A stretch of DNA of 64,000 bases from Candidatus Omnitrophota bacterium (GTDB lineage: Bacteria; Omnitrophota; Omnitrophia; Omnitrophales; Omnitrophaceae). Below the pieces are notes generated by a model that ran no database searches, was not told the origin of the DNA, and saw nothing but the letters and a program-made list of their open reading frames with translations. Positions within the stretch are counted from its first letter, which is position 1, and each line of letters opens with the position of its first letter. Location of the stretch: the NCBI GenBank assembly GCA_029561555.1, contig JAKQXH010000044.1:9691-73690 (forward strand), read 5' to 3'. Positions 8,658-47,669 of the stretch are shown in pieces. The position numbers and the translations under genes are program-made.

Positions 8658-8722
8658 GAAAGGATGGACCGGTTTCCGGCTTGAGGGGCAGAAGGCTATG
8701 TCGGGGGTTTCCGGCGGCAAGT

Positions 8723-11080: not shown

Positions 11081-11178
11081 GTTTTTAAATATTTGAGAAG
11101 CCGGGAAGCCTCTCCCCTCCCTTATTCCTCAAGAATACGCGTAATCTTATATTTCATTCAATAGGTTGAATCGGAAAA

Positions 11179-11208
11179 ATCGAGGGTTCCTCAGGGGCAA
11201 CCCTCGAT
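11179..11208 (-). terminator. Intrinsic terminator-like hairpin at the 3' end of the SPASM rSAM gene; the stop codon lies in the loop.
   Basis: Perfect 10-bp inverted repeat ATCGAGGGTT ... AACCCTCGAT. On the minus-strand transcript it is followed by ATTTTTCC. Confidence 0.45.
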
Positions 11209-12360
11209 TGACATAGGGGAAACTCCCCGAGGGCTCAAATATTCGGCCACGTAGGCGTCAAATTCAGCCGGGTCGAATTTCTTGCTTTTCAGCCCCTCAT
11301 CCACTGTAATTTTGAAATAATTGCGGAGAACGGAAGGCGTCAGGCTGAACATTAAATTGAGATCGTTTACGCACATCAGATAACAGGCCTTGCAGCCGTG
11401 ATCCAGGGAATGCCGGACGGCTTTCCGCATCCCGGTTTCTCTGAAATCCCACCCGTCAAATTTCCCGATGAATTGGATGCACGGATAAACTTTCCCGTCG
11501 CAATCGATGAATATCATGTGTCTCCCGCCGAAGCATTTGATGTATTCAAATTCCGGCGGATTCTTGGAGAGGATGACTTTCCGGGTGTAATCGGGCCAAT
11601 CCAGAATTTTTCGCATGACCGTCTCCGAAAAAAGGATGGGGTAGCCGCGTTTTTTATAGGCAATCAGTTTTTTGACCGCTTCCCGGTACTCGTCTACGGA
11701 GATGTCCAGGTTCTGATAATCCGCGTCGCTTTTTAAGCTCCTTTGAACGAAAAAGCCGAATTCGGTGTAAATATGAAAGCGTTTCGCGAATTCCAGGATT
11801 CCGTCTAAGGCGGCCAGATTGTTCCGGTTGACGGTGGTGTAAGTGTGAACATTCACCCCCGCTTTTTTTGCGGCTTTGATGGCTTTCATAATGGTCTCAA
11901 ATGTGCCGCTTCCGCGGTTTGAATCATTGCTGGGTTTGTTCCCGTCCCAACTGATGCAAATCGTTTTGATTTTCTTCACGGTTTCGATTTTTTTCTCAAC
12001 CAAACTTCCGTTGGTGCTGATCCCCAAAGTGATCCCCAAAGCATTGGCTTTGTCTACGATCCGGTCAATGTCTTCCCTCAGCAAGGGTTCCCCTCCGCTG
12101 AGCTGCAGAAAAGACATCCCCATCCGGGCCAATTCCTCTATGGCCGCGAGAGCTTGTTCCGTGGTGATCGGATTTTTCTCCCTTTTTCTGTTTTTGTAAT
12201 CACCGTAACAATAGGCGCAATCGAAATTGCACTGAGGGGTCAGGGAGAAAGTGACGACAAGCGGGAACGGTTTGTTGAGGGCTTTGGAATAGAGCAATCT
12301 TGAGAAGAAACGGGCCCTGGAGATCAATGTCGCGATGGGTGCTTGTTTTTGGCTGTTCAT
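11191..12360 (-). CDS. Radical SAM protein with a C-terminal SPASM/twitch Cys-rich domain, paralog 1.
   Basis: CNFDCAYC (CxxxCxxC) about 45 aa from the N-terminus. C-terminal Cys cluster CFGG...CDGKVYPC...GCKACYLMC. Paralogous to the ORFs at 18525, 23689 and 24743. Confidence 0.8.
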   Translation of the reverse strand: MNSQKQAPIATLISRARFFSRLLYSKALNKPFPLVVTFSLTPQCNFDCAYCYGDYKNRKREKNPITTEQALAAIEELARMGMSFLQLSGGEPLLREDIDRIVDKANALGITLGISTNGSLVEKKIETVKKIKTICISWDGNKPSNDSNRGSGTFETIMKAIKAAKKAGVNVHTYTTVNRNNLAALDGILEFAKRFHIYTEFGFFVQRSLKSDADYQNLDISVDEYREAVKKLIAYKKRGYPILFSETVMRKILDWPDYTRKVILSKNPPEFEYIKCFGGRHMIFIDCDGKVYPCIQFIGKFDGWDFRETGMRKAVRHSLDHGCKACYLMCVNDLNLMFSLTPSVLRNYFKITVDEGLKSKKFDPAEFDAYVAEYLSPRGVSPMSIEGCP

Positions 12361-12379
12361 CGGGTCCTCATTTTTAACT

Positions 12380-13834
12380 TTATTGTATGCAGAATTTTTC
12401 TTTAAGGAATCTTTTTATTTGCCGCCGGTTCAGAAAAATGAAGCGTCCGCTCAAAATGTCGAGTATTAAATTCGGAAAATGAGATCTTAGAAATTCCCAA
12501 TAAAAAATTTTTTCTCTCCGTCTCAGCTCTTTTTTGTCAAAATCCGGAGTCTCAACGATCGGAGCGTTGAATCGGTCGATATTTTTCCAGTAATCCGCTT
12601 GGAGATAGCCTTCCCGGACGGATTCGTCATACAGTTTGGTTCCGGGGAAAGGAGTGAAAAAGCTTGTTGCGACCATGCTGAACGGGAATTTCCGGATCAT
12701 TTTCAGGGTTTCGGAAAAACAATCTTTGTTTTCCCCCGGAATCCCCAGAATAAAAAAGCCGATAACGGGAAGTCCCGCTTGTTTGCAGGCGGTCAGGGCC
12801 CGGTAAATCGTTTCTTCGCTGAGCCCTTTTTTAATGACGTGATTCCGGATGAAAGCGCTCCCGGATTCAACGCCGATGCAAACATTGACGCAGCCCGCTT
12901 TTTTCATTAACCGGGCCAATCCCGCGTCCAAGTGATCGGCGGCGATTCCGTTGGGGGTGTTCCATTTGAATTTCAGTCCGCCGCTGAGAATCAATTCGCA
13001 TAACCGGATGATTCGGGATTTGTCGTATGTCAAATTGTCGTCCATGAAGAAGATTTCTCTCACCCGAAAGTCTTTTAGGAGAATTTTTATCTCTTCGAAG
13101 ACATTTTCGGCGCTTCTCCCTCTCCACTTGGTTCCATGAGATTGATACATGCTGCAAAAAGTGCATTTTCGGGGACAGCTTCTGCTGGTGATGATCGAAG
13201 CAGCGCGGTTTTGTCCCAGCCCGTAGAGGACGGCCGACGGGTTTTGCAGGTAGAATTCCATGGGGAGTAAGTCCCTGGCGGGGAAAGGAAGTTCGTCCAG
13301 TCTCAGGATGAATTCCGTTTTGGAGCACACTTTTATCGTGCCGTCTGCTTTATAGGCACAGCCGTCGAGTTTTATTTCTTCCGGTGACTTTCCCGACTCG
13401 ATATGGCGGACAAGAGCCAAAAAGGATTTTTCGCCTTCGCCGATTATGACGTAATCCACTTCAGGATGGGCTCCGGTTTCCCGGGGGAAAATGGTCGGAT
13501 GAATTCCTCCGATCACCGTGATAATGGTCTTGCTGATTTCTTTGGCGGATCTTGCTATCTCCAACGCGGTGTCAATCCGTAAACTGAAAGGGCAGGTAAT
13601 TCCGACGATGTCCGGCTTGAATTCTTTTATCCGATGAATAACGTCCTGTTTTGAAAGCCCGTAATGCCAGACAGCTCCGTTTTTCTTGACTTCCGAAGCT
13701 GCCGCATCCAATATGGCGGTACAATATCCGTGTTTCCGGAGATAGGCCGCCAAATAGGCGAGAGACAAAGGTTCTTTGATTAATAAATGCGGCGAGTAAT
13801 AATCGAAAGCGGGATTGATCAGCAGGATTTTCAT
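12380..13834 (-). CDS. Cobalamin-binding (class B) radical SAM protein, paralog 2.
   Basis: MKILLINPAF... B12-binding-like N-terminal domain. SRSCPRKCTFC radical-SAM motif. 20-bp gap to the downstream SPASM gene. Confidence 0.8.
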   Translation of the reverse strand: MKILLINPAFDYYSPHLLIKEPLSLAYLAAYLRKHGYCTAILDAAASEVKKNGAVWHYGLSKQDVIHRIKEFKPDIVGITCPFSLRIDTALEIARSAKEISKTIITVIGGIHPTIFPRETGAHPEVDYVIIGEGEKSFLALVRHIESGKSPEEIKLDGCAYKADGTIKVCSKTEFILRLDELPFPARDLLPMEFYLQNPSAVLYGLGQNRAASIITSRSCPRKCTFCSMYQSHGTKWRGRSAENVFEEIKILLKDFRVREIFFMDDNLTYDKSRIIRLCELILSGGLKFKWNTPNGIAADHLDAGLARLMKKAGCVNVCIGVESGSAFIRNHVIKKGLSEETIYRALTACKQAGLPVIGFFILGIPGENKDCFSETLKMIRKFPFSMVATSFFTPFPGTKLYDESVREGYLQADYWKNIDRFNAPIVETPDFDKKELRRREKIFYWEFLRSHFPNLILDILSGRFIFLNRRQIKRFLKEKFCIQ

Positions 13835-14104
13835 GAATTGCGCGTGATGAAGTGTCTCACCCTCCCCCGGAAAACGTTTGTAAAAATACCTTGATTATAA
13901 AGATAGAAAACCGGTCCCGGCGGTTTTACCGCAGCGTCCTACGATTAGTATAAAATAACTTCGGGAGTTGTTCCAATTAAGAATTCCGGAGGAGAATGGG
14001 GCCCGGTGGAAAGATCGGGAAGGCGGCCGTCTGTGGACGGAAGAGATTTGAGGGATAACGCTTGCGGTAAATACCAAAACGATATTAGAATCTGCTATTA
14101 AAAT

Positions 14105-17014
14105 ATGAAATGGAACCTCGGGAAAACGATTTTTAAAGAACGGGTCCGACCTACAACCGGTTTCTTTCCTTCCGGCTTTTTTCAGATTATCTTCGATCTT
14201 TCCCCGCGTTATTTTTTCTGCCTGATGTTGGGAATCCTGGGGCTTCATAGAGGGGCGGCTCAGCTCCTTGAAAACGGCGGATGGATCCGCTTGAATGTGT
14301 TGACGGGAGGGCTTTCCCCTTTTTTTACGACGCAATTCCTGATTGAGGTTTTTTGTGTCCCTGCCGCCGTGACGGCGGGAATACTGATTTTCACTCTGAC
14401 GAATCAAGCTTATGCTTTTCTTAAGATGTGCCCCGGCGACTGCGTGAAAAATACGGCCGGCAGTTTTGTTATTTTGGGGATCCCTTTTCTGACCGCCTTG
14501 TCTTCCGGCCGGATCTCGCTTTTGTTTGCGGGCTTATGGGGGAGCCTTTTCCTGTACCTGGTTTCAAACGGATTGAATCTTCTAATCCTGGGGATCCGGC
14601 GGAGACATCCGCAGATGGGATCCGAAAATCTTTGGGAGGTTTCGCTGATCCTGATTTTTATTGGTTTTTATTTGCTGGGGAAAATGGGGGGCGGGAGAGT
14701 TTGTGAGGGGAGTTTTGTTTTCGTGCTAATAGGCTTTTGCTTTTTCCTTCCAATCGCTGTTTTTGCGTTTGCCTATGGGCTGTCGGCCCGTTTGGGGCGA
14801 CATTTCCTTCCCCCATTGTTTGGAAGCTATGCGGTGATACTTGCGGTCGCTTTTGGATTTCTGACTTTTGACCTTTTCCGTTTTTTTTCATCCGGCAGCC
14901 CGGTCTTACTTTCGTCTGTAGCCGCATCTCTGGCGGCGGCAGGAGGCCTGATTTTGGGCTTTCGTCTCAAAAAAAATTTTGATCCGTTGAGCGGTTTGAA
15001 CCGGATTGCCTATTTTTTGGTGGTTCCCCTGATGATGATTTGCTATTTCAGTCCCCTGATGTTCAGCGCGGATCCGGATGCTCTGGGGAACTGGGGGAAT
15101 GTGATGCATAAAACTTCCACGACCGCATTTTGGACCGCGGAACTGTTCCTGCGAGGCGGGAAATATTTTGCGCAAATCACGTCACCGGGGATCGGCTGGA
15201 TGCTTTACAACGCATTGCTGATGAAATTGTTCCGGTATGATTACGCGTTGATTGTCAATGCGAAAATGCTTGTCTATGCTTTAGGCATGACCGGTTTTTA
15301 TCTCACCATTTATGTTTTTACGGGCCGGAAAATCGTCATCCCGTGCCTGCTGCTGGGTTTGGCCGGGTACATGCCCTTCTACTACGACTATAACAACTGG
15401 GACATGTGGCAGAGATATTTGTTTTATTGGCCCGGCATGGCGGCCTGCTTTTTTTACCTGAAGCGCGACGCGGAGGGGAGAAAAACCCATTGGATTCTCT
15501 TGTCGGCGGGGTTTCTGGCAGGACTCAACCTGGCTTCGGTTTGGGATGTTGCGCTGCTGGGAGGAGTGAATCTTTTTGTCCTTTTTGCCGCCGTCAATTT
15601 TTCGAACAATCCGTTAATTGAAAAATGGAAACGAAATTTAATCTTGGCAACGGGTTTCCTAATCGGCGCGGCTCCGTTTCTTCTTTTTGTCGCACGGCAT
15701 TGCGGCCTTTTCAATTATTTTGCCTATTATCTCTATTTAATCAAAGGATGCGGGGTCTATGCTTCGGGGCGTGTTTGGGAAAATCCGAGCATGGTTTTCT
15801 GGCCGACCCTGACTCACTCATTCGTGTATTTCAACTTCATGAACATCAAAATTATCCTCTCGTGTGTCGGGGTCCTGCTCCTGGTTTACCGGCTCCTTCA
15901 AAGACAGGTCGATGTTTTCACGAAGATGCTGGCGATTTTTATTTTACAGGATCTTTTTTTTATGGTGACCCGGTTTACCGGGGGCGGGGACGGGGGGACG
16001 CTTTTTTATAAATCGGCCATGTACGGGAGCGTGATTCTTTATGCGGTATTTGCTCAGTTTTTCAGAGCAAAGAATTATTTTCCGAGCTTATGTGTTTTGT
16101 TTGCGATCGTTTTTGCGCCGAACATGATTTATCCTATTTCAAGCAGCGATTATGAAACGGATTTCGGAAAGTACGCTTTTAATCCGACCGCGTATATCAA
16201 CGCGAGGGAAAGCCTGCCGGAAAAAATACGGGGACTCTCGACCTATGACCGAAAGAAACAGGACGAACGTTTCCGGGCAGTCAATGATCGTTTCCGGGCG
16301 GTTATTCGCATGACGCCGGGGACTTATTTTGATGACAGTCTGCCGCAGATGCCGCCTGATTTCTCGGATCACATCGGAATTTTATTTTTGAGAAATTATT
16401 GGGTAAGGCAATATGCCGCAACGAAGGCCTGCGCCGGGGATTTCCGGTTTTCGGAAGATTACGGCTATTTAAAATCCAATCAGGCTGCCGAGGAATTTAT
16501 CCGATCCAACAAACGCGATATCCCCGTTTCGGCGGATGTTTTGAATCCGCCGCAGGAGACGATAGCGATTGATGTGTTTGGCGATCTGGAGGCGAGGCGT
16601 AAACAATACCGGGACCGGTATTATGACCAATGCTATAAGGGGAATAGCGTCCAGGATGTTTCAATCCTTGCCCGGATGATATTCCCCGACAAATCGGGGG
16701 TGTCGTTATCCCTTGAAAATCCGAATCCGTCCGTTTTGATGGTTGTGGATTACCCGTACTTATCAAAAAATGCCCCCGCCCGGTTTCCTCTCAACCGGGT
16801 TGAAGTCGACGGGACCGAAGCTTCCGTCTATCCGACGATCAACGGAACGCAGGCTGTTTTAATTCCGTATGGACGACATACGGTTGTTGTAAGAAACCTT
16901 GCGAAATCGAAGGCATTTATTTTGAGTCTGCTGGGAGTTATGACGTTTGCGTCGATTGCCCTTTTATTTCTTTCCCATGGCATGAGCCGCTTTTTTTCGG
17001 GGCCTTCCGACTGA
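14105..17014 (+). CDS. YfhO-family-like polytopic membrane protein (GT-C-like), paralog C (969 aa).
   Basis: Multi-TM N-terminal half and a large hydrophilic C-terminal domain ending in ...VEVDGTEASVYP...GRHTVVVRN plus a terminal TM helix (FILSLLGVMTFASIALLFL). Only plus-strand gene inside the locus; convergent with the rSAM at 17066. Confidence 0.55.
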   Translation: MKWNLGKTIFKERVRPTTGFFPSGFFQIIFDLSPRYFFCLMLGILGLHRGAAQLLENGGWIRLNVLTGGLSPFFTTQFLIEVFCVPAAVTAGILIFTLTNQAYAFLKMCPGDCVKNTAGSFVILGIPFLTALSSGRISLLFAGLWGSLFLYLVSNGLNLLILGIRRRHPQMGSENLWEVSLILIFIGFYLLGKMGGGRVCEGSFVFVLIGFCFFLPIAVFAFAYGLSARLGRHFLPPLFGSYAVILAVAFGFLTFDLFRFFSSGSPVLLSSVAASLAAAGGLILGFRLKKNFDPLSGLNRIAYFLVVPLMMICYFSPLMFSADPDALGNWGNVMHKTSTTAFWTAELFLRGGKYFAQITSPGIGWMLYNALLMKLFRYDYALIVNAKMLVYALGMTGFYLTIYVFTGRKIVIPCLLLGLAGYMPFYYDYNNWDMWQRYLFYWPGMAACFFYLKRDAEGRKTHWILLSAGFLAGLNLASVWDVALLGGVNLFVLFAAVNFSNNPLIEKWKRNLILATGFLIGAAPFLLFVARHCGLFNYFAYYLYLIKGCGVYASGRVWENPSMVFWPTLTHSFVYFNFMNIKIILSCVGVLLLVYRLLQRQVDVFTKMLAIFILQDLFFMVTRFTGGGDGGTLFYKSAMYGSVILYAVFAQFFRAKNYFPSLCVLFAIVFAPNMIYPISSSDYETDFGKYAFNPTAYINARESLPEKIRGLSTYDRKKQDERFRAVNDRFRAVIRMTPGTYFDDSLPQMPPDFSDHIGILFLRNYWVRQYAATKACAGDFRFSEDYGYLKSNQAAEEFIRSNKRDIPVSADVLNPPQETIAIDVFGDLEARRKQYRDRYYDQCYKGNSVQDVSILARMIFPDKSGVSLSLENPNPSVLMVVDYPYLSKNAPARFPLNRVEVDGTEASVYPTINGTQAVLIPYGRHTVVVRNLAKSKAFILSLLGVMTFASIALLFLSHGMSRFFSGPSD

Positions 17015-17065
17015 ACCGGGGATTTTTCTTGGTTCTCGGGGGGTGTCCGTCAACTTGAGAAATGA

Positions 17066-18514
17066 TTATCCTTTTCCCCCGGTCATCAGGCTTCGCTTTC
17101 GCCACGCATAAATAAACACTTGCCCCCAATGCAGCCTGTTTTCGTGTTTGTTCCGGATAAAATAGCCGAGAAGAAAAAGAAGGTAAAACAAGGAATTCAG
17201 GGATTCAAGATGGACGGCCCATTTGAATGTTTTATAAGTCCAGGGATATCTGACGAAAAAGTAAAGGAGGAAATGCACATTCATGATTTTTCTTTTTTCG
17301 GGCAGATTCAGGGCGCTGGTTTTGTAGGCAAGCATGGGGATGTCCCGGATGGAGTAATCCTTACGGATCAATCCCTTCTTTTTGATGTAATCGGTAATGG
17401 CGGTCCCGGGATAGGGAATCAGCAGCATTGAGGCCGCGAGATCGGCTTTGCATTGAATGTTCAATTCAACCGTTTCGAGAGCATTGTCGAGTGTTTCATC
17501 CGGGAGGCAGAACATACTGCTGGTCCGGACGATAATCCCGTTTTCCTTGAGGACGGTCCCGCATTCGATCATTTCCGAATTCGAAATCGGTTTGTTCAGT
17601 ACCGTTCTTCGAAGCGCTTCATTACCGGTTTCAATCCCGAATGAGGCGGAATAGCAGCCTGCCTGTGCCAGTATTTTTGCCGTTTCCCGGTCGAGTATTT
17701 TGGCCCGCGTCATGCAGACAAAAGGGATTCCGACCTCTTTTTTGTATTCCGCAAGGAATTCCTTCAGCCAAATTTTGTCGAAAGTAAAAAGGTCGTCGAT
17801 AAAAAAAACGCTCGGAGAGGCATATTCCCCGATCGCGGCCAGAATTTCCCGCATGAAATTTCCGACGCTTTTGCGCCTGAGGTACCCGGTTTTGCCGATT
17901 GAATCTCTCAGGTAACTGTTGTAGCAGAAGCTGCAGGAAAACGGGCATCCTCTGCTTGAGATGAAGTAGCAGATCGCGTCCCGGCGGAGGGAAGGGTATC
18001 GCTTGAAATAAATATCCCGTGTTTCCAGAATTTCTTCCCGGTATTGAAAAAGGGGGGCCTGAGGGTTTTTGCGTATCGCGCCGCTTTCTGTTTTGTGGGC
18101 GATCCCGGGGATAGATGACCAGTCCGGCTTTTGTTTTTTTGCTTCATCAATGACGCGGCCCAGAACGGCCTCTCCGTCTCCGTAACAGGCCAGGCGGGCA
18201 TCCGTATCGGTCAGAATTTCTTCGGGAAACACTTGGGCATGGACTCCTCCGACGATTATCGGCGTTTCCGGGAATGCCCGGTGGATGCGCCTGGCGGTCT
18301 CCGAAAGCCACGAATGTTCCGTTGAAAAAACGGAAAATCCGATGATTGAAGGGCTAAGAAAGCGGAGCTTTTGAATCAAATCTTTTTCAAGGGCATCAAT
18401 CAGGATCTCGATACGACAGCCGGTTCTTTCTAGGTGGGCGTTTAGAGAGAGGATTCCGAAATAAGGCATGGGATATTGCTGAATGATCACAATATCCGGT
18501 TTTGCGGGCGTCAA
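17066..18514 (-). CDS. Cobalamin-binding (class B) radical SAM protein, paralog 3.
   Basis: B12-binding-like N-terminus. SRGCPFSCSFC motif. 10-bp gap from the upstream SPASM gene. Confidence 0.8.
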   Translation of the reverse strand: MTPAKPDIVIIQQYPMPYFGILSLNAHLERTGCRIEILIDALEKDLIQKLRFLSPSIIGFSVFSTEHSWLSETARRIHRAFPETPIIVGGVHAQVFPEEILTDTDARLACYGDGEAVLGRVIDEAKKQKPDWSSIPGIAHKTESGAIRKNPQAPLFQYREEILETRDIYFKRYPSLRRDAICYFISSRGCPFSCSFCYNSYLRDSIGKTGYLRRKSVGNFMREILAAIGEYASPSVFFIDDLFTFDKIWLKEFLAEYKKEVGIPFVCMTRAKILDRETAKILAQAGCYSASFGIETGNEALRRTVLNKPISNSEMIECGTVLKENGIIVRTSSMFCLPDETLDNALETVELNIQCKADLAASMLLIPYPGTAITDYIKKKGLIRKDYSIRDIPMLAYKTSALNLPEKRKIMNVHFLLYFFVRYPWTYKTFKWAVHLESLNSLFYLLFLLGYFIRNKHENRLHWGQVFIYAWRKRSLMTGGKG

Positions 18515-18524
18515 GGCCGGCCCC

Positions 18525-19586: not shown

Positions 19587-19598
19587 GGTTTGTTCGGG

Positions 19599-20558
19599 TT
19601 ATAACCCGACTGAGTTTCTGATGATGTAGTTCGGCCGTTTGGCGACGTCCCGGTAAATCCGGCCGAGATACAAACCGAAAACGCCGATGGTAAACAAAAC
19701 GATGCCGTTCAGAAAGAAAATAGAACTCATGATGGCCGTCCATCCGGGCATATCATTGCGTCCGAGCAGCTTGTTCAGCAGAATGACCACAAAGCACGCG
19801 AAGGAAAGAAATGAGATGGCAAATCCGAGAAAAAGCGACAACCGGAGAGGGGCGGCCGAGAAGGTGATGACACCCCTTTCAAATTCTTTCATGGGACCCC
19901 ACCCGAGCAGGGGGAAGTGAGTCTGTCCCTTGTGCCGGGCTTCTCTTTCGTAGAAAACGTTTTCCTGCTTGAACCCGATCCAGTGCACCAGACCGCGCAT
20001 GAAAGGATCGTATTCTTCGAGCCGGACCAACTCACTGACGGCCCTCCTCGATAAAAGCTTGAAATCCCCGGAGTTGGGGAGAATCTTGGTTTCGGAGATC
20101 AGATTCAGAAAGCGATAAGCCATTCCGGTGAGAAATAGCTTGACCGGATTTTCCCCTTTCCGTTTGGTCCTTGTCGAGTGGACGATTTCCGCGCCGTTGC
20201 GCCATTTCTCGACCATGGCGGGAATCACTTCGGGGGGGTCCTGAAGATCGCAATCCATATATACGACGGCGTCTCCGGATGCCGCCCTTAAGCCCGCCAA
20301 AGCGCATTGATGGACCCCGAAACACCGGGACATATTGATGATCTTGACGGCCGGGTCCTTTTCCCGTTCTTTCAGGAGGATATCAAGTGAATTGTCCGTG
20401 GAATCGTCATTAACGAAAATCATTTCGTAATCAAGGGAGAGATGTTTTGCGACAGCACGGACCCGCTTGATCAGTTCTTCAAAGACTTCCGCTTCATTGC
20501 GGAAAGAAAACACAATGGACAGCAGCATGGGCACCCTCCTTTTTCTGCGGGGCAGCAA
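19599..20558 (-). CDS. GT2 glycosyltransferase of the polyprenyl-phosphate sugar synthase type (GtrB/CsbB/DPM1-like) with a C-terminal TM anchor.
   Basis: LSIVFSFRNE...FVNDDSTDNS...DCDLQDPPE (DxD region). Two C-terminal hydrophobic helices. 319 aa, typical of the GtrB/ArnC family. Confidence 0.75.
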   Translation of the reverse strand: MLPRRKRRVPMLLSIVFSFRNEAEVFEELIKRVRAVAKHLSLDYEMIFVNDDSTDNSLDILLKEREKDPAVKIINMSRCFGVHQCALAGLRAASGDAVVYMDCDLQDPPEVIPAMVEKWRNGAEIVHSTRTKRKGENPVKLFLTGMAYRFLNLISETKILPNSGDFKLLSRRAVSELVRLEEYDPFMRGLVHWIGFKQENVFYEREARHKGQTHFPLLGWGPMKEFERGVITFSAAPLRLSLFLGFAISFLSFACFVVILLNKLLGRNDMPGWTAIMSSIFFLNGIVLFTIGVFGLYLGRIYRDVAKRPNYIIRNSVGL

Positions 20559-20620
20559 TTTTCAGGCGCTATTGTGACATAAAACGGCCCCGTATTGAAC
20601 CAAGAAATAACTTTAACCGG

Positions 20621-22192
20621 TTAATCCGACGCTTGCCCGGGAGGGTTTGGTCTGTCCTTGAATTCCGTCAATCCCGAAAAGGCGCTTAAAAAAAAGCGGA
20701 ACGAAACGGCCGTTTCCCTCTTTATCACGCTATAGTAAAAAAATTGAACGAGTTTCACGAAAAGAGAGACCGCCAAGACGCAATACCCGGAGAATTTCCC
20801 GAGACGTTTTAAAAGGCTTTCGGTTTTTCGGAATTTTCCGGGACGAAAATCCAGGACCGAAAGATTGTCCCAAATTCTCCGGAAGCGGGCGTATGATGCA
20901 AAATACGCGTAAAGCAAATCCCTCCGGATTTCCGCCTCCGTGCTGCCGGGCGGGACATAAGAGAAAGGGGTCGGCTTGAAAGGATTTTCGATCAGCAGTG
21001 ATACCGAATTGAAATTTTCCCAAAGCCCTTTAACGTTTAAACGGTTCTGCTTTTTTGCGATTTCGTACAGTTCCGTTCCGGGGAAGGGGGTGGCGTTGTT
21101 GTAGCGGACAACGTCCAGTTTTAATTTTTGATCCATCCGGACGGAAGCCATTCTGTTTTCGCGGCTGTCGCCGGGAAGTCCGAAGATGAAAGTCGCGCGG
21201 ATCTTGAAACCCGCTTGTTTTGCCTGTCGGACCGCATCGGCCATTTGAGCGCTGGTTTCTCCCTTTTTGATCGTTTTGAGAACATCGTCGGTGGCGGCTT
21301 CCAGGCCGAAACTGATGGTGTCGAATCCGCTCACGCGAAGCTCTTGCAATAGAGCGGCATCGATATTGTCCGCCCGGGCTTGACAGTCAAACCGCATTTT
21401 TTTGTGCAACTCCTTTTCCCGGATTCCTTTCAGCAGAGCGCAGACTTTGTTCCGGTCAATCAGAAAACTGTCGTCCAGGAAGGAGATGTTGCGAAGATGG
21501 TACCGGCTGCCGAGAAGTTCCAATTCTTCGAAAACGGCTTCAGCGGGCCGGAAACGGAATTTCAGGCCGGTCACGATACGATTACTGCAAAAGATGCATT
21601 TGAAGGGGCAGCCTCTGGAGCTCATGATGAACCCGAGGTCATAAGATTCCGGAGAGAATAAATGATACGGGAATAAAGGGTAATCGGAAAGATCGTCGTG
21701 CGGGAAAAGTCTTTGATTGTGGATGATTTTCCCGCTCTGCTTGCGGGAAAGGTTCGGGATGTGAGAGACGGGACTTCCGTTTTTCAGGCACCGGTATAAT
21801 TCCGGCAGCGTTCGCTCGGATTCTCCGCTGAGGACAAAATCGACATGATCATACGCCAAGGACTCTTCGGGGAGCGCGGTTGGGTGGATGTTTCCGAACA
21901 AAATAATAGAGTCGGGATACAATGTCTTTAGAATTTTCGAAAGTTCGATCGCGCGTTTGAAGCTTGCCGTCAGTACGCTGAATCCGAAAATATAAGGTTT
22001 TTCCAGTCGCGCGATCGTTTCCGCAATGCGCGGTAAGATGCGGTCTTCAATTTGCTCGTCGATATAATGGGGGGTGATTCCTTCCCGTTCCAAAAACGCC
22101 ATCAGATAGCCGATGCCGATCGGGATCCAGCGGGGCAGGAACGGCTGAAACAATCTGAGTGTGTCTTTGGAAGATGGGTTGATGAGAATCAT
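20621..22192 (-). CDS. Cobalamin-binding (class B) radical SAM protein, paralog 4.
   Basis: MILINPSS... N-terminal B12-like domain. SRGCPFKCIFC motif. 523 aa. Confidence 0.8.
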   Translation of the reverse strand: MILINPSSKDTLRLFQPFLPRWIPIGIGYLMAFLEREGITPHYIDEQIEDRILPRIAETIARLEKPYIFGFSVLTASFKRAIELSKILKTLYPDSIILFGNIHPTALPEESLAYDHVDFVLSGESERTLPELYRCLKNGSPVSHIPNLSRKQSGKIIHNQRLFPHDDLSDYPLFPYHLFSPESYDLGFIMSSRGCPFKCIFCSNRIVTGLKFRFRPAEAVFEELELLGSRYHLRNISFLDDSFLIDRNKVCALLKGIREKELHKKMRFDCQARADNIDAALLQELRVSGFDTISFGLEAATDDVLKTIKKGETSAQMADAVRQAKQAGFKIRATFIFGLPGDSRENRMASVRMDQKLKLDVVRYNNATPFPGTELYEIAKKQNRLNVKGLWENFNSVSLLIENPFKPTPFSYVPPGSTEAEIRRDLLYAYFASYARFRRIWDNLSVLDFRPGKFRKTESLLKRLGKFSGYCVLAVSLFVKLVQFFYYSVIKRETAVSFRFFLSAFSGLTEFKDRPNPPGQASD

Positions 22193-22195
22193 GGC

Positions 22196-23620
22196 TTACT
22201 TTTGATTCATTTTGCTCAGCATATGAAAACCGGTCTTAATGGTTCGATAGGCTTCTTCGGGTTTGATATGAAGAAGCCGTTTCAGAAGATATCCGGGCCG
22301 GCGGTAAAAGTTCCTGACCGCCTTCCGGCGCATTTGCTCCAGGGTTTCATATGAATAATCTTTTGTCCAAGCCAAAAGCGGCATGGCGGGGGCCGGTTGC
22401 ATCGCGTATTCTCTCCAGAAATCTCTTTGAAGAATCCCTTGCTCCAGCGCCATTTGGTAAGCCTCGGTTCCCGGGAGGATGTTGAATATCGCGTATTCCA
22501 GATAGGTCGGCTTGATTTCCTGCGCGAGCTTGATGGTCTCGCCCATCTCTTCAAGCGTTTCTCCGGGGTTTCCCAAAATAAAATAGGCGACGGTGTCGAT
22601 TCCGCATTGATTGGTCAACGCGAAACACTTTCGGATCATGCCGACGTCCGTTTCTTTCTTCAAAATTTTCAGAACCCGGTCCGTGCCGGCTTCGACTCCG
22701 TATTGAATTCTCTGGCAGCCCGCTTTTTTTATTAATTTCAGCATCTCGAGGTTGACCGCGTTGACTCGGCCCCGGAAAGACCATTTGAATTTTAATTTTC
22801 TTTGAAGGACTTCGGTCGCGAATTCGATTACGCGTTTGACGTTCAGGTTGAAAGTCTCGTCGTAGAACTCCACTTCTTTAATGCCTAAATCGAGGTAGAT
22901 CTCAATTTGTCGAAGCACCTTTTCCATGGACAGTAAACGGATGCGGCTGAAGTCCAATTTGCAAAAGATGCAATGAAAAGGGCATCCCCGTGCGCTGATG
23001 GCCGTGGCCATCGGGTTGTTGGTCAGGAAAGACCGGTATTTTTTATAGGGCAGGAGCGTGAGGTCGGGAATGGGCAGGGAATTCAGGTCTTGGAGTTGAA
23101 ATTCTTTGAATGAATCCAAATCATCCGCTAAGTTTTCTGATGTGTAAAGCCCCGAAATCCTTCCAAGACTCTCATTTCCCCCGAAATTCCGGCACAGTTC
23201 GGAAAAAGGAATCTCTCCGTCCCCCAGAACGACGGAATCGATTCCCGGCAACCGGAGGGATTCTTTCGGGAAAATCGAAAGATGCGGACCGCCCCAGCAA
23301 ATATGCGCGGAGGGGAGAGCTTTTTTTATGATTTGCGTCACGCGAAAAGCGGAATAAAGTTTGAAGGTCACGACGGTGATCCCGACAATGTCCGGCCGGT
23401 AATCCGTTACCAGGCGGATTAACTCTTCTTCGCCGAGGCACTCCAGCTGATTGTCGAGCAGTTTTACTTCAATGTGCGGTTGATTTTTCAGATAGGTCCC
23501 GACGGAAAGAATCCCTAAGGGAGGCTTTTTTTCCATCGCCTCATGGACTTCGTTCATGGTGGTGGCGATCCGTTCCGAAAGATGAGGATTGATCAAAAGG
23601 ATTTTTAGTCTGCCCGCCAT
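22196..23620 (-). CDS. Cobalamin-binding (class B) radical SAM protein, paralog 5.
   Basis: LKILLINPHL... B12-like domain. ARGCPFHCIFC motif. 3-nt gap to paralog 4. Confidence 0.8.
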   Translation of the reverse strand: MAGRLKILLINPHLSERIATTMNEVHEAMEKKPPLGILSVGTYLKNQPHIEVKLLDNQLECLGEEELIRLVTDYRPDIVGITVVTFKLYSAFRVTQIIKKALPSAHICWGGPHLSIFPKESLRLPGIDSVVLGDGEIPFSELCRNFGGNESLGRISGLYTSENLADDLDSFKEFQLQDLNSLPIPDLTLLPYKKYRSFLTNNPMATAISARGCPFHCIFCKLDFSRIRLLSMEKVLRQIEIYLDLGIKEVEFYDETFNLNVKRVIEFATEVLQRKLKFKWSFRGRVNAVNLEMLKLIKKAGCQRIQYGVEAGTDRVLKILKKETDVGMIRKCFALTNQCGIDTVAYFILGNPGETLEEMGETIKLAQEIKPTYLEYAIFNILPGTEAYQMALEQGILQRDFWREYAMQPAPAMPLLAWTKDYSYETLEQMRRKAVRNFYRRPGYLLKRLLHIKPEEAYRTIKTGFHMLSKMNQK

Positions 23621-23688
23621 TTTTTTATCCGCGCGTCGTGCGCTGTTTTAACGAAAAAACGATTTAACTTGCGATAAACAATCGCAGG

Positions 23689-24720
23689 TCAGCGGCTTTT
23701 TAGAGTGCTGATCACTTGTCCTGCGAGAACTTTGAGGTCCAGGCTTGCGATTTTATTGAATTCATTATAGCAGGGGAAGTAACAAGTTTTGCAGGCGTGC
23801 CCGGAACAGTGTTCCCAAGCCTTTTCAATGCCGACTTTCCTGAAGTCCAGGGCGTCAAAGGCGTCGATTAACTGAACGCAGGGATAGGTTCGCCCGTCCG
23901 CGTCGATGAACATCATGAAACGGCCGGCGAAACAGCGTATGTAATCAAAATCGGGTTCTTGCCCCATGACAATGCGTTGATGAGGATCCGGCCAATCGGC
24001 CGCGTAGCGGTAAACGGCTTCCGAGAACAAAATCGGGGCTCCTTGTTTTTTAAGTTCCGCGACCCGGTTGGCCGCTTTCCGGAAAAGGTTTTGCTCGGCC
24101 ATGTATCGGTCCGATTCGCTTTTCCCGCCGGATTGATGAAAGAGAAAATTGAATTCCGCCTGCATCCTTTTTTCCCGGGCCAGGTTGACGATCCAGTCCA
24201 CCGCGTCTGTGTTGTGCCGGGTGATGACCGTTGTCGTGTGAACTTTTATCCCGGCCCGGAGTGCCGCGTCGATTCCCGCCATGATTTCTTCGAAAGATCC
24301 CGTTCCCCGGTTTGCGTCGTTCATTTCCTTGGGCCCGTCGATGGAAACGGTGACCATGTCGATGTCTTTCAGATCCGGAAGCCGCCGGGGGATCAAAATC
24401 CCGTTGGTGTTCATCCCGCATTCAATTCCGCAGTCTTTGATCTTCCGGATGAGAAAGCCGATGTCGTTGCGGAGGAGAGGCTCTCCGCCTCCCAGCGTGA
24501 TGGAACGCGTGCCGAGTTTCCGGAGCCCGTCAATCAGGCCGGAGAGTTCTTCCGTCGTGAAGTCCGCATCCTTTCGCCCGAAATATTGGCCGTAGCAGTA
24601 GCCGCACTTCAGATTGCACCGGAAGGTCGTGTTCAAGACAACAACGAGGGGGGTTCTTCCCCCGGTAAACCGGTCTTTTAAGAGTGTTGCGAAAAATGCG
24701 GCGCGATTGTAAAAGCCCAT
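23689..24720 (-). CDS. Radical SAM / SPASM-twitch domain protein, paralog 3.
   Basis: CNLKCGYC motif. C-terminal CFAG...DADGRTYPC...GHACKTCYFPC Cys cluster, collinear with paralog 1. Confidence 0.8.
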   Translation of the reverse strand: MGFYNRAAFFATLLKDRFTGGRTPLVVVLNTTFRCNLKCGYCYGQYFGRKDADFTTEELSGLIDGLRKLGTRSITLGGGEPLLRNDIGFLIRKIKDCGIECGMNTNGILIPRRLPDLKDIDMVTVSIDGPKEMNDANRGTGSFEEIMAGIDAALRAGIKVHTTTVITRHNTDAVDWIVNLAREKRMQAEFNFLFHQSGGKSESDRYMAEQNLFRKAANRVAELKKQGAPILFSEAVYRYAADWPDPHQRIVMGQEPDFDYIRCFAGRFMMFIDADGRTYPCVQLIDAFDALDFRKVGIEKAWEHCSGHACKTCYFPCYNEFNKIASLDLKVLAGQVISTLKSR

Positions 24721-24742
24721 GCGGTTCCTCTGTTTTAGTGCG

Positions 24743-25780
24743 TCAAGATTTCACATAATTCCATATAACGGCAGGATTCAGATCCATCAAAAGCCCGAAC
24801 TCATGATGATAAATTTGATAGCAGGCTTTGCAGGGGTGCCTGGATGCCGTTTGCCATGCCCGCGCGACTCCCGTCTCGAGAACATTGTCCGCGTCAATTT
24901 TACCGATCAGATGCGGGCAGGCCCATAAGGTCCCGTCCGGGTCGATGATCCCGAAGAATTTTCCCGCCGGGCATCCCGGCATCCCCTCCGGCGGAGGGGC
25001 GTTCACGACGCCTTCGATCGAGAAATCTTTCCAGCAGTTTAAAACGCTTTGAAAGGCTTTTGCGGAAGTCAGGATCGGGGCGCCTTCCTTTTTCCTTCGG
25101 ATAATATGAAGAAGCGCGTTCCGGAATTCTTCCGTGGAGGGTTTGAATTCGTCCTCCGGAAGGCTGTTCCCGAAAATGTTGGAGATCACAAGGGAAAATT
25201 CCGTTTTGAAGCCGTACCGACGGGCCAGATCCAGCAGGTAATCGATGTCATTCAGATTATGTTTGCTGAGGACCGTATTCGAATGAACACGAATGCCGGC
25301 TTTCCTCGCCGCGATAATGCCGTTGAGGGCCTTTGCCGCGGTTCCCGCGCCCCGAAGCCGGTCATGATGCTCGGGCCGGCCGTCGAGACTGACGGCCAGG
25401 GAATCCGGTCGGGATCTTGCCGTTTTTAATTCCGAGAGAAACTGGGGGATGAGGATCCCGTTTGAATTCAGCGTGGAATACATTCCCAGGGAATTGACGA
25501 ATGCGATCAGTTCGCCGATGTCTTTCCGCAATAGCGGCTCTCCGCCGCCGAAACTGATTCGTTGACAGCCGTTTTGGCGGAGCGCCAGGATTATTTCCTT
25601 GACCTTTTCCGTGGACAGTTCGTTTTCACCGCTCCGGTTGTAATATTCCGCATAACAATGCCTGCAACGTGAATTGCAGCGGTTCGTCAGGTTGATGATG
25701 ACGGTTAAGGGAACATTTTTCCGGAGCAATTTCGACCGGAGCAGTCCAAAGAAAAATCGACAGCTTTTCAGGATTGCCAT
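24743..25780 (-). CDS. Radical SAM / SPASM-twitch domain protein, paralog 4.
   Basis: CNSRCRHC motif. C-terminal Cys cluster (CPAGKFFGIIDPDGTLWACP...CKACY). Confidence 0.8.
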   Translation of the reverse strand: MAILKSCRFFFGLLRSKLLRKNVPLTVIINLTNRCNSRCRHCYAEYYNRSGENELSTEKVKEIILALRQNGCQRISFGGGEPLLRKDIGELIAFVNSLGMYSTLNSNGILIPQFLSELKTARSRPDSLAVSLDGRPEHHDRLRGAGTAAKALNGIIAARKAGIRVHSNTVLSKHNLNDIDYLLDLARRYGFKTEFSLVISNIFGNSLPEDEFKPSTEEFRNALLHIIRRKKEGAPILTSAKAFQSVLNCWKDFSIEGVVNAPPPEGMPGCPAGKFFGIIDPDGTLWACPHLIGKIDADNVLETGVARAWQTASRHPCKACYQIYHHEFGLLMDLNPAVIWNYVKS

Positions 25781-25789
25781 GAAGAAGCG

Positions 25790-27307
25790 CTACTCCAGAT
25801 ATTCCCGAAGATAACCCAGGAAAAATCCCGGGTTCTGAAAGAACCCCATGTCATGCGCGAGGGCCATGTAAAATCGCGGCCGCTTCAGGGCGTCGAGCAG
25901 GAGGCTTTTCCGATTGATCCGGGCAAATTCCTCCATGGCCCCGTCGAGGACCCGCTTTTTTTCTTCCGCATCAATGCCTTCGGTCAGAGAAGAAGCGGTG
26001 CTGATATGGCAACGGTCCCGGTATTCGGCCAAGCCCTGAGGATTTTTCCTTGCGAGAAAATCCGCAAGTTCGGTTCCCGCGGCGGGCGTGGCCAGATAAG
26101 GATAAACGATATAAGGCTTGATTTCCTTGATGAGATTGACGGTGTCCCGTATTTCTTTCGTGCCTTCCCAGGGGAGGCCGACCATGCAGAAAGCGACCAT
26201 GTAGAGGCCGTGCTTGCGGATCAATTTCGCGCATCGGCGCACGTCATCCACCGTGTTGCCTTTTTTGATCAGTTCCCGGATGCCGGGATTTCCGACCTCC
26301 ACGCCGACCGCGATATGCTGTCCGCCGGCTTTCTTCATCATGGACAGCGTTTTATCGTCCGCCATTTCCGCCCGCGTCTGTGCCGACCAAAAAAGCGGAA
26401 GGCGGCGACGGAGAAGCAGGTCGCAGAATTCGAGGGCCCGGTCTTTTTGAATGAAGAAAATGTCATCGCAGATATAAAAGTATCTTGTGCCAAAACGCCG
26501 GTACACGCTTTCCATTTCATCGACCATGTTTTTCGCGGAGCGGAGGCGGGGTTTGTATCCCCAGCTCGTGTGACACCCGCAGAAGACGCAATCGAAGGGG
26601 CATCCCCTTGAACCGTAAATTCCCTGGAATGAGTGGGGAGGTGTTTTTTCGGCACCGTAGAGGAGGTGCCGGGCGGGAAAGGGAAGCCAGTCTAAATCTT
26701 CAAGCGGGGGCCGGTCTTCATTGTGAACCATGCCGCCGTTTTTCTTCCAACTGAGGCCTTTGATTTTCGAAAAGTCGTTTGATTTTGACGCCAACGCTTG
26801 AACCAGTTCAACTGCGGTGACTTCCGGCTCCTTCCTCAGGGCGAAATCCATGACGGAAACGTCCGCGTTCGTGCTGGGGTCGATGGCACAGTGCAGTCCG
26901 CGGTTGGTGCAGCCTTCAAAGACGGTTTTAATGGCGGGGTCCAGTTCTTTCGCTGTTTTTGCGATTTTGTTTCCCGCGGTGAGCGTGGTGCTGAAAACGC
27001 TGAGGAATAACAGGTCCGGCCGGTATTGCCGGATGAATTGCCGTATTTCTTCCCAAATCGGGTCCCCGTCGTCGTGCAATCGCCGGTCGTATTCTTCCGC
27101 GAGCTCCGTGAGGGCTTTAATGTTCAGATGGTTGGTGTTTCCGAGAATGGTTTTTTTGTGCGGATCAAAATCCGCGTTGTAAATCAAGATATCGTTAAAT
27201 CCGGCCTTTTCGAGTACGGCCGCGATGTAACAGCAGGAAGGGGGATAGTGAACGAGGGATGCCCTTTGCAAACGGTAAAAGGGAGGGTTGATGATCAGAA
27301 TTTTCAT
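25790..27307 (-). CDS. Cobalamin-binding (class B) radical SAM protein, paralog 6.
   Basis: MKILIINPPF... B12-like domain. SRGCPFDCVFC motif. 9-nt gap to SPASM paralog 4. Its start overlaps the upstream SDR gene stop (ATGA). Confidence 0.8.
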   Translation of the reverse strand: MKILIINPPFYRLQRASLVHYPPSCCYIAAVLEKAGFNDILIYNADFDPHKKTILGNTNHLNIKALTELAEEYDRRLHDDGDPIWEEIRQFIRQYRPDLLFLSVFSTTLTAGNKIAKTAKELDPAIKTVFEGCTNRGLHCAIDPSTNADVSVMDFALRKEPEVTAVELVQALASKSNDFSKIKGLSWKKNGGMVHNEDRPPLEDLDWLPFPARHLLYGAEKTPPHSFQGIYGSRGCPFDCVFCGCHTSWGYKPRLRSAKNMVDEMESVYRRFGTRYFYICDDIFFIQKDRALEFCDLLLRRRLPLFWSAQTRAEMADDKTLSMMKKAGGQHIAVGVEVGNPGIRELIKKGNTVDDVRRCAKLIRKHGLYMVAFCMVGLPWEGTKEIRDTVNLIKEIKPYIVYPYLATPAAGTELADFLARKNPQGLAEYRDRCHISTASSLTEGIDAEEKKRVLDGAMEEFARINRKSLLLDALKRPRFYMALAHDMGFFQNPGFFLGYLREYLE

Positions 27308-30204: not shown

Positions 30205-30300
30205 TGACGATGGCTCCGATTCTCGAGCCGCAGTATAGCCTACTCTTTTTGTTTTGAATAGTCCAAATTGGCCCGCTTCAAATTGTTTTTTTGGGGGAAA

Positions 30301-35662: not shown

Positions 35663-35666
35663 GGGC

Positions 35667-36383: not shown

Positions 36384-36391
36384 GCCGGTTG

Positions 36392-37417: not shown

Positions 37418-37435
37418 GAAAACCCCTCTTTCGGA

Positions 37436-39528: not shown

Positions 39529-39556
39529 TGCAAACCCTCCGTTATCTGATTGTGAT

Positions 39557-41580: not shown

Positions 41581-41633
41581 AAGTAGTTTTGGTTCCGGAT
41601 TTTACCATACGGCAAAGATTCGGCATATTTTTA

Positions 41634-42569: not shown

Positions 42570-42665
42570 TTTTGATCAACTCCTTTTGATGATTGATGTC
42601 TTGAATATCGGCATTTTGCGAAAAATTATTTCAGCGCGGATTTTTATCGTGAAATCCGGTCCTCA

Positions 42666-47647: not shown

Positions 47648-47669
47648 AGGAGTTGACGGGGCCGGAAAC

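Follow-up and report, generated by a model that had tools for sequence, protein, structure and literature searches.

A probable cross-phylum cassette of radical-SAM and polyprenyl-phosphate glycosyltransferase genes in a glycan island of Candidatus Omnitrophota

Introduction

Why does a bacterial glycan island carry radical S-adenosylmethionine (radical-SAM) enzymes of two kinds side by side, and are the adjoining genes copies of one module? The stretch of DNA analysed here, 64,000 nucleotides (nt) of contig JAKQXH010000044.1 from a Candidatus Omnitrophota bacterium (assembly GCA_029561555.1; the whole stretch is called the window), contains a cell-surface glycan island of ~40 kb (window ~5000-47600) with 13 radical-SAM genes in total, counting a MiaB-like gene at 46448-47647. 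Four of the genes encode short radical-SAM proteins (S1 to S4), and each of these adjoins a gene for a radical-SAM protein of the B12-domain type (B1 to B4). A sequence-only reading of the window had taken the four pairs for one two-gene module expanded fourfold by duplication. We find that the island is probably a patchwork of enzymes that diverged long ago and are each conserved in their own right, rather than the product of tandem amplification of a two-gene module, and that B4, S4 and S3 recur with glycosyltransferase genes in other phyla. Three-component glycosylation and radical-SAM tailoring of sugars are each known; their conserved joining in a cross-phylum cassette appears to be undescribed. 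Open-access full texts yielded no paper on radical-SAM enzymes joined with a GtrB/YfhO/GT-C/polyprenyl three-component cassette, and no curated family model names the radical-SAM proteins of the cassette.

Radical-SAM genes of the island

All eight open reading frames (ORFs) of the sequence-only reading are present, every one on the minus strand: S1 (11191-12360), B1 (12380-13834), B2 (17066-18514), S2 (18525-19586), B3 (22196-23620), S3 (23689-24720), S4 (24743-25780) and B4 (25790-27307). The coordinates give gaps of 19 nt for B1/S1, 10 nt for B2/S2, 68 nt for B3/S3 and 9 nt for B4/S4, in agreement with the reported 9-68 nt. Four further B12-type genes (5026-6510, 20621-22192, 34154-35662 and the split gene 30301-31715) had been described as partnerless, and indeed none of them has a short radical-SAM neighbour. 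The CX3CX2C motif is found in all eight named proteins and in the lone B proteins as well, and the Pfam Radical_SAM model PF04055 scores 55-101 bits across the eight and the lone B genes (cut-off 29.5); with motif and core both present, the proteins belong to the radical-SAM superfamily. The picture of two radical-SAM architectures that are predicted to be co-transcribed was borne out, and the S and B enzymes very probably act in one pathway.

In the order of transcription on the minus strand, the main run consists of GT2, GT2, an epimerase, B4, S4, S3, B3, the lone B gene at 20621, GT2, S2 and B2, with intergenic gaps of 3-96 nt across the whole run. Because the gaps outside the named pairs (22 nt between S4 and S3, 3 nt between B3 and the lone B gene) are as small as those within them, splitting this run into four pairs is arbitrary. 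When the S and B labels were shuffled over the 12 radical-SAM slots, every S stood beside a B in 44 of 495 arrangements (8.9%), and a one-to-one pairing was feasible in 32 of 495 (6.5%); the pairing pattern of the window alone is therefore not compelling. A promoter scan of 11000-30500 found promoter-like sites no commoner than in shuffled sequences, and terminator-like matches in the same interval fall mostly within genes; neither outcome bears on the extent of transcription units. The lesson is that two radical-SAM architectures adjoining within a dense radical-SAM run are not evidence for module duplication.

Families of the S and B proteins

All-versus-all BLASTP showed that S1, S3 and S4 are full-length paralogs with 34-43% identity over ~340 residues (S1 and S3, 43%). 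S2 belongs to a separate family: it matches the other three at 22-27% identity, limited to ~180 residues of the radical-SAM core, and its own orthologs form a large family of ~341 amino acids (aa) in many phyla. The family of S1, S3 and S4 comprises 471 representatives at E <= 1e-30 among the matches listed. The sequence-only reading had called all four SPASM proteins. The Pfam model behind this label, PF13186 (cut-off 21.5 bits), passes its threshold in S2 alone (44.4 bits); S1 and S3 reach ~18 bits, and for S4 (Radical_SAM 101.5 bits) there is no SPASM hit. The seven-cysteine motif CX9-15GX4C...CX2CX5CX3C...C together with PF13186 is not found in the S family. Instead, all S groups including S2 have four C-terminal cysteines in common (S3 residues 263, 281, 310 and 313), arranged as C-x17-C...C-x2-C, and a fifth is present in the S3 and S1 groups and in the S5 group, a related set that is absent from this genome. 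A CX~17C hairpin followed by CX2C, together with fold likeness to twitch enzymes, fits a predicted twitch arrangement, a truncated SPASM with one auxiliary cluster, rather than a seven-cysteine SPASM domain. Twitch radical-SAM enzymes include BtrN, MoaA, SkfB and BlsE. The closest solved relative of S3 is BlsE, and the sole match of S2 in the Protein Data Bank (PDB) is BtrN, the twitch 2-deoxy-scyllo-inosamine dehydrogenase (PDB 4m7t; E 1e-4), whose cysteine pattern we take to resemble that of the S groups. The radical-SAM core of the S proteins begins near residue 30.

Turning to the B proteins, the B12-binding model PF02310 scores above its cut-off of 32.1 bits in B1 (88.7 bits), B2 (51.5 bits) and B3 (69.3 bits) and below it in B4 (29.0 bits); the AlphaFold2 model of B4 nevertheless has a Rossmann-type N-terminal domain. 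All four therefore show the class B radical-SAM architecture, an N-terminal B12-binding Rossmann domain before the radical-SAM core. The B proteins are mutually only 22-32% identical by BLASTP, and the best match in the window of both B1 (32%) and B3 (30%) is the product of the lone gene 5026-6510, which lies on the plus strand at the left edge of the island and is assigned by Pfam as a B12-domain radical-SAM enzyme. The best PDB sequence match of all four is AprD4, with the methylase MgmA close behind, so that B4, for example, may be described as an AprD4/MgmA-like enzyme with a B12-like Rossmann domain. AprD4 (the 1,2-diol dehydratase of apramycin synthesis, PDB 6fd2) and the class B methylases MgmA, CysS, TsrM, TokK and GenK are 14-23% identical to the B proteins and score almost equally against them, and these scores do not separate methylation, dehydration and rearrangement. 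AprD4 is not known to use cobalamin. The lone B gene 20621-22192 (minus strand), also a B12-domain radical-SAM gene by Pfam, begins 3 nt downstream of B3 and encodes a hydrophobic C-terminal segment with one predicted transmembrane (TM) helix (residues 464-482).

The gene listed as the ninth B12-domain radical-SAM gene (30301-31715, minus strand) is split by a one-base deletion into two overlapping ORFs with half the domains each. In the Logan contig L002 (99.92% identical), the same gene is an intact ORF of 471 aa, with one G differing near window position 31000 (GG to G). The frameshift near 31000 is also present in contig L001 of the Joint Genome Institute (JGI), a metagenome contig to which window 13689-34720 is 100% identical. 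The split gene is either a fresh pseudogene or an assembly error common to both sequences.

Conserved cassette in other lineages

If adjacency within the window decides little, which of these genes stay together elsewhere? Gene order was compared in ten independent lineages that have an S3 ortholog: this genome, a second Omnitrophota metagenome-assembled genome (MAG), two Daviesbacteria (Patescibacteria), a Planctomycetia MAG, a Desulfobacteraceae MAG, a hydrothermal "Deltaproteobacteria" MAG, a Proteobacteria MAG and two unclassified contigs. The long-read MAG L082 was left out, its genes being fragmented by frameshifts (L numbers denote related loci). Among the matches listed there were 94 S3 ortholog clusters with 46-89% identity and ~100 B4 clusters; of the S3 clusters on contigs of at least 10 kb, 17 of 29 were matched by a B4 cluster with an equally long longest contig.

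Orthologs of B4, S4 and S3 occur in one gene run in all ten lineages and are contiguous in that order in eight, with B4 as the first gene of the triad and S4 and S3, both short twitch-type enzymes, as the second and third. S3 is the most conserved member. In L014, a B1 ortholog lies between S4 and S3, and in L008 the order is S4, S3, S5, GT2, GT2, B4; S4 and B4 are adjacent in nine of the ten lineages. The same run contains orthologs of two glycosyltransferase genes, GT2a and GT2b, in nine of the ten, and the tenth contig stops at B4. In the inspected loci L006, L008, L010, L012, L014 and L016, the cassette is flanked by the gene for a large protein (650-810 aa), which either resembles YfhO, PMT_2 or DUF6541 or is unassigned. 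Behind S3, there is usually a third S paralog of the S1 or S5 type. Together, these loci show a recurrent unit, which consists of GT2a, GT2b, B4, S4 and S3, usually an S1- or S5-type gene, with or without B12-domain enzymes such as B1, and a big YfhO/PMT/DUF6541-like membrane protein. A second and simpler unit consists of a GtrB-like GT2 and S2: in all four other contexts of S2 that were compared, its neighbour is a GT2 of the type found at 19599-20528. Orthologs of this GT2 beside S2 in L080, L083 and L084 are 46-55% identical to it, and in L083 (Omnitrophica) the GT2 and S2 genes, which overlap by 14 nt, form an isolated pair amid housekeeping genes. Beside them, L083 also has defence-type genes at 9089-13341, namely an AAA_21/RloB pair and a CBASS-like SMODS/DncV-like nucleotidyltransferase with a Cap15-like effector.

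The claim that the pairs are linked in other genomes held in part. S4-B4 is conserved within the triad, and S1-B1 is often seen: the two adjoin each other in four loci (L059, L060, L062 and L063), and either gene may come first (S3-B1-S1 in L060, S3-S1-B1 in L062), so that B1 may be called a frequent neighbour of S1, which itself usually comes just after S3. On the other hand, S1 has no B1 partner in L010, where the order is S3-S1, and B1 has no S1 partner in L014. No B3 ortholog was found beside S3 in the nine other lineages, and no B2-type gene beside S2 in its four other contexts. B3-S3 and B2-S2 thus look like lineage-specific juxtapositions seen in this lineage alone, B3 being an accessory gene beside S3 and B2 the last gene of the run.

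The cassette crosses phylum boundaries with little divergence. Between this Omnitrophota genome and the Daviesbacteria, S3 is 64% and B4 66-67% identical. The nearest relatives of S3 (72-74%) come from a Desulfobacteraceae MAG and from an unclassified one, and the other Omnitrophota MAG follows at 69%. As the triad is unusually similar across phyla and the nearest S3 lies outside the Omnitrophota, these comparisons suggest that the cassette has been transferred horizontally.

Glycosyltransferases and membrane proteins of the cassette

GT2a (29230-30204, minus strand) is a GtrB-family polyprenyl-phosphate glycosyltransferase with two C-terminal TM segments. In the PDB sequence search, it matched the Synechocystis GtrB sll0501 (5ekp) over residues 6-310 (E 1.9e-89), and also ArnC (7e-44) and DPMS (2e-17). 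Its orthologs in the cassette of nine of ten lineages are 44-65% identical. GT2b (28296-29264, minus strand), the second GT2 of the cassette, scores 119 bits with the Pfam model Glycos_transf_2 and also ends in two TM segments; it has weak NCBIfam matches to MftF-like and EpsD-like transferases, and its orthologs in nine of ten lineages are 34-55% identical. The conserved partner of S2, the GT2 at 19599-20528 (minus strand), is of the GtrB/PgfS/ArnC-like polyprenyl-phosphate glycosyltransferase type, with NCBIfam matches to PgfS (240 bits) and ArnC (126 bits), both below cut-off, two C-terminal TM segments and 40% identity to GT2a. A catalytic domain with two C-terminal TM helices and full-length homology to GtrB, the marks of the GtrB/ArnC/DPMS type, were thus found in this island. 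Between GT2b and B4 lies a gene for an HpnA-like NAD-dependent sugar epimerase/dehydratase (27304-28299, minus strand; Pfam Epimerase 98.6 bits, NCBIfam HpnA 228 bits against a cut-off of 367.65), which has a called length of 331 aa in the JGI and Logan contigs and an ortholog at the same position in Planctomycetia L013.

The island also encodes four polytopic proteins (6552-9038, 8723-11080, 14105-17014 and 31737-34157) with 9-15 TM segments each. The YfhO-like protein at 8723-11080 (minus strand; ~11 TM) is encoded immediately downstream of S1 and scores 37 bits with the YfhO model (cut-off 28.5); an ortholog with 77% identity follows S1 in L059. The protein at 31737-34157 (minus strand; ~11 TM plus a terminal TM) is a putative GT-C of the YfhO-like kind (23.8 bits). 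A PDB sequence search with the YfhO-like protein gave no match. The gene at 14105-17014 (plus strand) encodes 969 aa with ~15 TM, appears among the gene calls of the JGI and Logan contigs, and separates B1-S1 from the main run. It coincides with a strong negative AT skew (-0.27) at 14001-16000, which is accounted for by the gene.

Proposed pathway

What could the cassette do? The nearest solved relatives of the B and S proteins are carbohydrate-tailoring enzymes, and the regular companions of the triad are two glycosyltransferases, one of them of a type that loads polyprenyl phosphate. We consider it likely that the radical-SAM enzymes tailor a sugar that is destined for, or already on, polyprenyl phosphate, and that the product is then transferred by a YfhO-like protein. 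In the first step, at the cytoplasmic face of the membrane, a GtrB-like GT2 would use a nucleotide sugar to attach a common sugar to undecaprenyl phosphate. In the second, the cytoplasmic radical-SAM enzymes would abstract hydrogen from the sugar and remodel it in successive reactions, for example by deoxygenation/dehydration, oxidation/epimerisation, decarboxylation or C-methylation; they could act after loading, on the lipid carrier, or shortly before it, at the level of the nucleotide sugar. The tailored lipid-linked sugar would then be flipped across the membrane, and GT-C-like membrane proteins would pass it to an envelope acceptor, possibly lipopolysaccharide (LPS). The extra B12-domain and twitch genes of this genome would provide lineage-specific decorations.

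This scheme has much in common with three-component glycosylation systems, such as GtrB/GtrA/GtrC, CsbB/GtcA/YfhO, ArnC/ArnT and PgfS/PgfM. Like them, the island has a GtrB-family GT2 with two C-terminal TM helices and YfhO-like polytopic proteins in the same operon, and the concept of auxiliary enzymes that diversify a lipid-linked sugar is also the same. Auxiliary enzymes that modify the lipid-linked sugar have been described for such systems, among them one made up of a polyprenyl-phosphoribose synthase, a MATE flippase and GT136 with auxiliary epimerases (PMC11127046). The island differs from such systems in having no recognised flippase and in the up to 13 radical-SAM genes embedded in it, for which we found no similar report. 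It is also set apart from the pathways in which the solved relatives work. S3 is 20% identical to BlsE, the twitch cytosylglucuronate decarboxylase of blasticidin S synthesis (PDB 7vob), an enzyme of a nucleoside antibiotic rather than of an envelope glycan; BlsE decarboxylates, and the likeness of S3 to it is one of fold class, not of reaction.

Several points weigh against this proposal. The closest solved structures, at 20-23% identity, show the fold class and not the reaction, and AprD4 is probably the top match of all four B proteins just because it is the nearest solved member of the subclass. No NCBIfam model for the radical-SAM, GT2 or sugar genes passes its curated cut-off, and these matches are family-level hints only. 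A search of the B proteins for membrane-anchoring tails or amphipathic N-termini revealed a clear hydrophobic segment only in 20621-22192. The synteny comparison rests on ten lineages. Of the candidate transferases, that at 31737-34157 is below the YfhO threshold, and 14105-17014 and 6552-9038 have no Pfam family match. Finally, a dedicated flippase (GtrA, Wzx, MATE or ArnE/F families) was not recognised among the Pfam-scanned ORFs of the window, and, apart from 43562-44105, no intergenic gap could accommodate another gene. The flippase gene could lie elsewhere, or the function could reside in one of the unassigned polytopic proteins; 14105-17014 is a candidate for the missing flippase or GT-C function. 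The exceptional gap itself, 543 nt between the divergent arms of the island, holds only a 103-aa ORF (43736-44047, plus strand) with a signal-peptide-like N-terminus.

The strongest alternative is that the radical-SAM enzymes tailor soluble nucleotide sugars only, giving C-methyl, deoxy or branched sugars, and that the GT2 and GT-C proteins use finished donors. The toolkit of the island, a GHMP kinase, an NTP-transferase, a DegT aminotransferase, epimerases and a thiamine pyrophosphate (TPP)-dependent E1 alpha/beta pair, speaks for it, as do the soluble sugar substrates of BlsE, AprD4 and BtrN and the S2 orthologs that lie among nucleotide-sugar genes in L080 and in contig P0123. Minimal cassettes argue the other way: L010 has a minimal cassette of seven genes without sugar-nucleotide genes, and the GT2 and S2 of L083 likewise lack them, while both remain tied to a GtrB-like gene. 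It follows that the L010 cassette must start from a common sugar. Minimal cassettes would still be compatible with a substrate that is a common UDP-sugar, in which case this alternative differs from the tailoring for polyprenyl phosphate proposed above in the stage alone. On balance, we regard the soluble-only version as improbable, though deserving of serious attention.

A bolder form of the proposal places the chemistry on the carrier. Several radical-SAM enzymes would successively rebuild a sugar on polyprenyl phosphate (deoxygenation, decarboxylation, C-methylation, ring contraction) in a so far unrecognised and horizontally spread pathway that gives a new lipid-linked donor for a YfhO-type GT-C. 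Its spread would take in anaerobic Omnitrophota, Patescibacteria/Daviesbacteria, Planctomycetia, Desulfobacterota and Proteobacteria MAGs. We put forward the on-carrier pathway and this spread, taken together, tentatively, as a minority option. If it is right, the cassette would be an oxygen-independent counterpart of the lipid-linked sugar editing by DprE1/DprE2 or ArnD.

Should the radical-SAM tailoring of polyprenyl-linked sugars be true in either form, the route from GtrB-type synthase through flippase to GT-C would gain an unsuspected stage of radical chemistry, kept at 50-75% identity across phyla as distant as bacteria of the candidate phyla radiation and Omnitrophota. It would define a function for several hundred unannotated "radical SAM protein" entries, predict new sugar structures on the surfaces of uncultivated anaerobes, and offer compact test systems of two to seven genes.

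Trees and the duplicated-module claim

Do the S and B genes share a history? In the duplicated-module model, an ancestral pair of S and B12-type radical-SAM genes was duplicated four times with inversion of the order, and each pair is an obligate two-enzyme unit, for example for oxidation/epimerisation and C-methylation. Neighbour-joining trees were built for both sets with homologs from the related loci (numpy-based, simple distances, 100 bootstraps). In the S tree, the S3 (100%), S1 (100%) and S4 (89%) groups are recovered, the S5 grouping is poorly supported (50%), and the topology is ((S3,S1) 73%, S4) 92%, with S1 as the sister group of S3; S2 and its Rhodospirillales ortholog form a long separate branch. 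In the B tree, B4 (100%) and B1 (99%) are each recovered, and 34154-35662 clusters with a gene from the Rhodospirillales (100%). The split gene 30301-31715 and genes from Daviesbacteria form one group with B2 (100%), which B4 joins, also at 100%. B3 joins 5026-6510 at 42%, and the deeper B nodes have bootstraps of 24-45%. Each orthogroup has members from several phyla, and the duplications must therefore long predate this genome.

There is something to be said for the model. All four short radical-SAM genes do adjoin a B12-type gene at 9-68 nt, the S4-B4 and S1-B1 adjacencies recur elsewhere (the latter in both orders), and the Daviesbacteria genes that group with B2 adjoin genes of the S5 type. 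Nor is the ((S3,S1),S4) topology contradicted by B1 and B3 falling apart from B4; the nodes that place them, however, are weak (24-42%), and the B4 and B2 clade at 100% is not, so that the test of tree congruence did not come out in favour of co-duplication, for which the trees offer no positive support. Clear paralogy of the pairs, as had been claimed, is contradicted by S2, which comes from a different family, and by the low mutual identity of the B proteins, and B1 and B3 are each nearer to a lone B gene than to each other. The fourfold expansion of one module fares no better, with S2 outside the family, no supported congruence from the B tree, and B3-S3 and B2-S2 unlinked outside this lineage among the loci examined. 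The constant neighbour of S3 is S4 rather than any B gene, L008 and L010 each combine three short radical-SAM genes with a single B12-type gene, S1 and B1 are found without each other (L010 and L014, respectively), and shuffled labels allow one-to-one pairing at the frequency given above. For B2-S2 and B3-S3, the duplicated-pair model is largely refuted, and as a whole we hold it to be quite unlikely.

Lipid and peptide alternatives

Radical-SAM enzymes that act on lipid-linked sugar head groups do exist, namely HpnJ and calditol synthase (Cds) (PMC13459092), and the question arises whether the island modifies membrane lipids of the hopanoid or ether-lipid kind, with HpnJ-, HpnH- and HpnA-like enzymes acting on the lipid or its polar head group. 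For most B proteins, HpnJ is the top or near-top NCBIfam match (100-206 bits), the S proteins have weak matches to HpnH (61-67 bits), HpnA matches 27304-28299 as noted above, HpnB matches GT2b weakly, and GDGT-MAS is among the matches of S3. The parallel extends to the order of events in the HpnI/HpnK/HpnJ and Cds pathways, in which a GT2 sets a sugar on a lipid and a radical-SAM enzyme of the B12-domain type is then proposed to rearrange the sugar (PMC13459092). None of the proteins reaches the equivalog cut-off of HpnJ (577.6), HpnH (225) or HpnA, and the B scores are three- to five-fold below that of HpnJ. No squalene, hopene or ether-lipid synthesis genes, and no hopanoid or glycerol dialkyl glycerol tetraether genes, were seen in the window; GT2a is a full-length GtrB homolog, and GT-C-like transferases accompany the cassette in every inspected locus. 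In contrast to HpnJ and Cds, the lipid here would be a polyprenyl-phosphate carrier from which the sugar is passed on by a GT-C. The hopanoid reading was rejected with all Hpn matches below threshold, and we judge lipid modification very unlikely.

Least credible of all is a cluster for maturation of a peptide that is synthesized ribosomally and modified post-translationally (RiPP), in which B12 radical-SAM C-methyltransferases and SPASM enzymes are a common pairing and to which the sub-threshold NCBIfam matches ApyD, PapB, StsB and a RiPP C-methyltransferase family would point: it was rejected since the gaps of 3-96 nt leave no room for a precursor gene, S proteins with a core from about residue 30 lack an N-terminal domain for peptide recognition, neither a protease nor a transporter nor a leader-like ORF was seen, BlsE and AprD4 are closer than the solved RiPP enzymes, and the context consists wholly of glycan genes.

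Other genes of the island and its flanks

Upstream of the main run lies a nucleotide-sugar block (34154-43562, minus strand) which, by Pfam and NCBIfam matches, encodes a B12-domain radical-SAM enzyme, an HddC/ManC-like NTP-transferase, an HddA-like GHMP kinase, an Fcl-like epimerase, a DegT aminotransferase, TPP-dependent E1 beta and alpha subunits, a further epimerase and an AglJ-like GT2. Much of it is found again next to an S2 ortholog of Rhodospirillales L080 (1-11140), where the B12 radical-SAM enzyme is 52%, the GHMP kinase 56% and the epimerase 54% identical, the NTP-transferase and E1 alpha/beta are also present, and the block is flanked by two GT2 genes and a 661-aa membrane protein. 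In Planctomycetia L013, a part of it (AglJ-like GT2, E1 alpha/beta and epimerases) stands next to the triad. Judging by the E1 alpha/beta pair, the product may be a two-carbon branched-chain sugar. Further GT2, GT47-like and methyltransferase genes are also encoded in the island. The MiaB/RimO-like gene at 46448-47647 (plus strand; UPF0004 and Radical_SAM) follows GT47-like, nucleotide-diphospho-sugar transferase and methyltransferase genes, and its end is overlapped by ~200 nt by a 377-aa ORF (47442-48575) with no family match.

After the island, the plus strand at 52530-63116 encodes pyrG, kdsA, kdsD (SIS+CBS), a lipid A acyltransferase, lptC/lptA, lptB, hpf, a ptsN-like EIIA, a CofD/YvcK-like protein and ptsI; the genes for LPS, 3-deoxy-D-manno-octulosonic acid and Lpt transport are at 54198-58642. 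With kdsA, kdsD, the lipid A acyltransferase, lptC/A and lptB downstream, the organism is a diderm that makes LPS, and LPS is a possible envelope acceptor for the sugar.

At the left end of the window, a 1172-aa ORF (43-3561, plus strand) has one predicted TM segment and no Pfam match, and an 80% identical homolog of at least 1469 aa is found in L059 (7258-11667). L059 is syntenic with the left part of the island, with the big ORF, a DAO oxidoreductase, the lone B12 radical-SAM gene, the YfhO-like gene, S1 and B1. The ORFs 6552-9038 and 8723-11080, both on the minus strand, overlap by 316 nt, and the true start of 6552-9038 is probably well downstream of its first TTG. Over-long ORF calls were also noted at 38344-39768 and at 27304-28521, the latter corresponding to the 331-aa epimerase of the JGI and Logan contigs.

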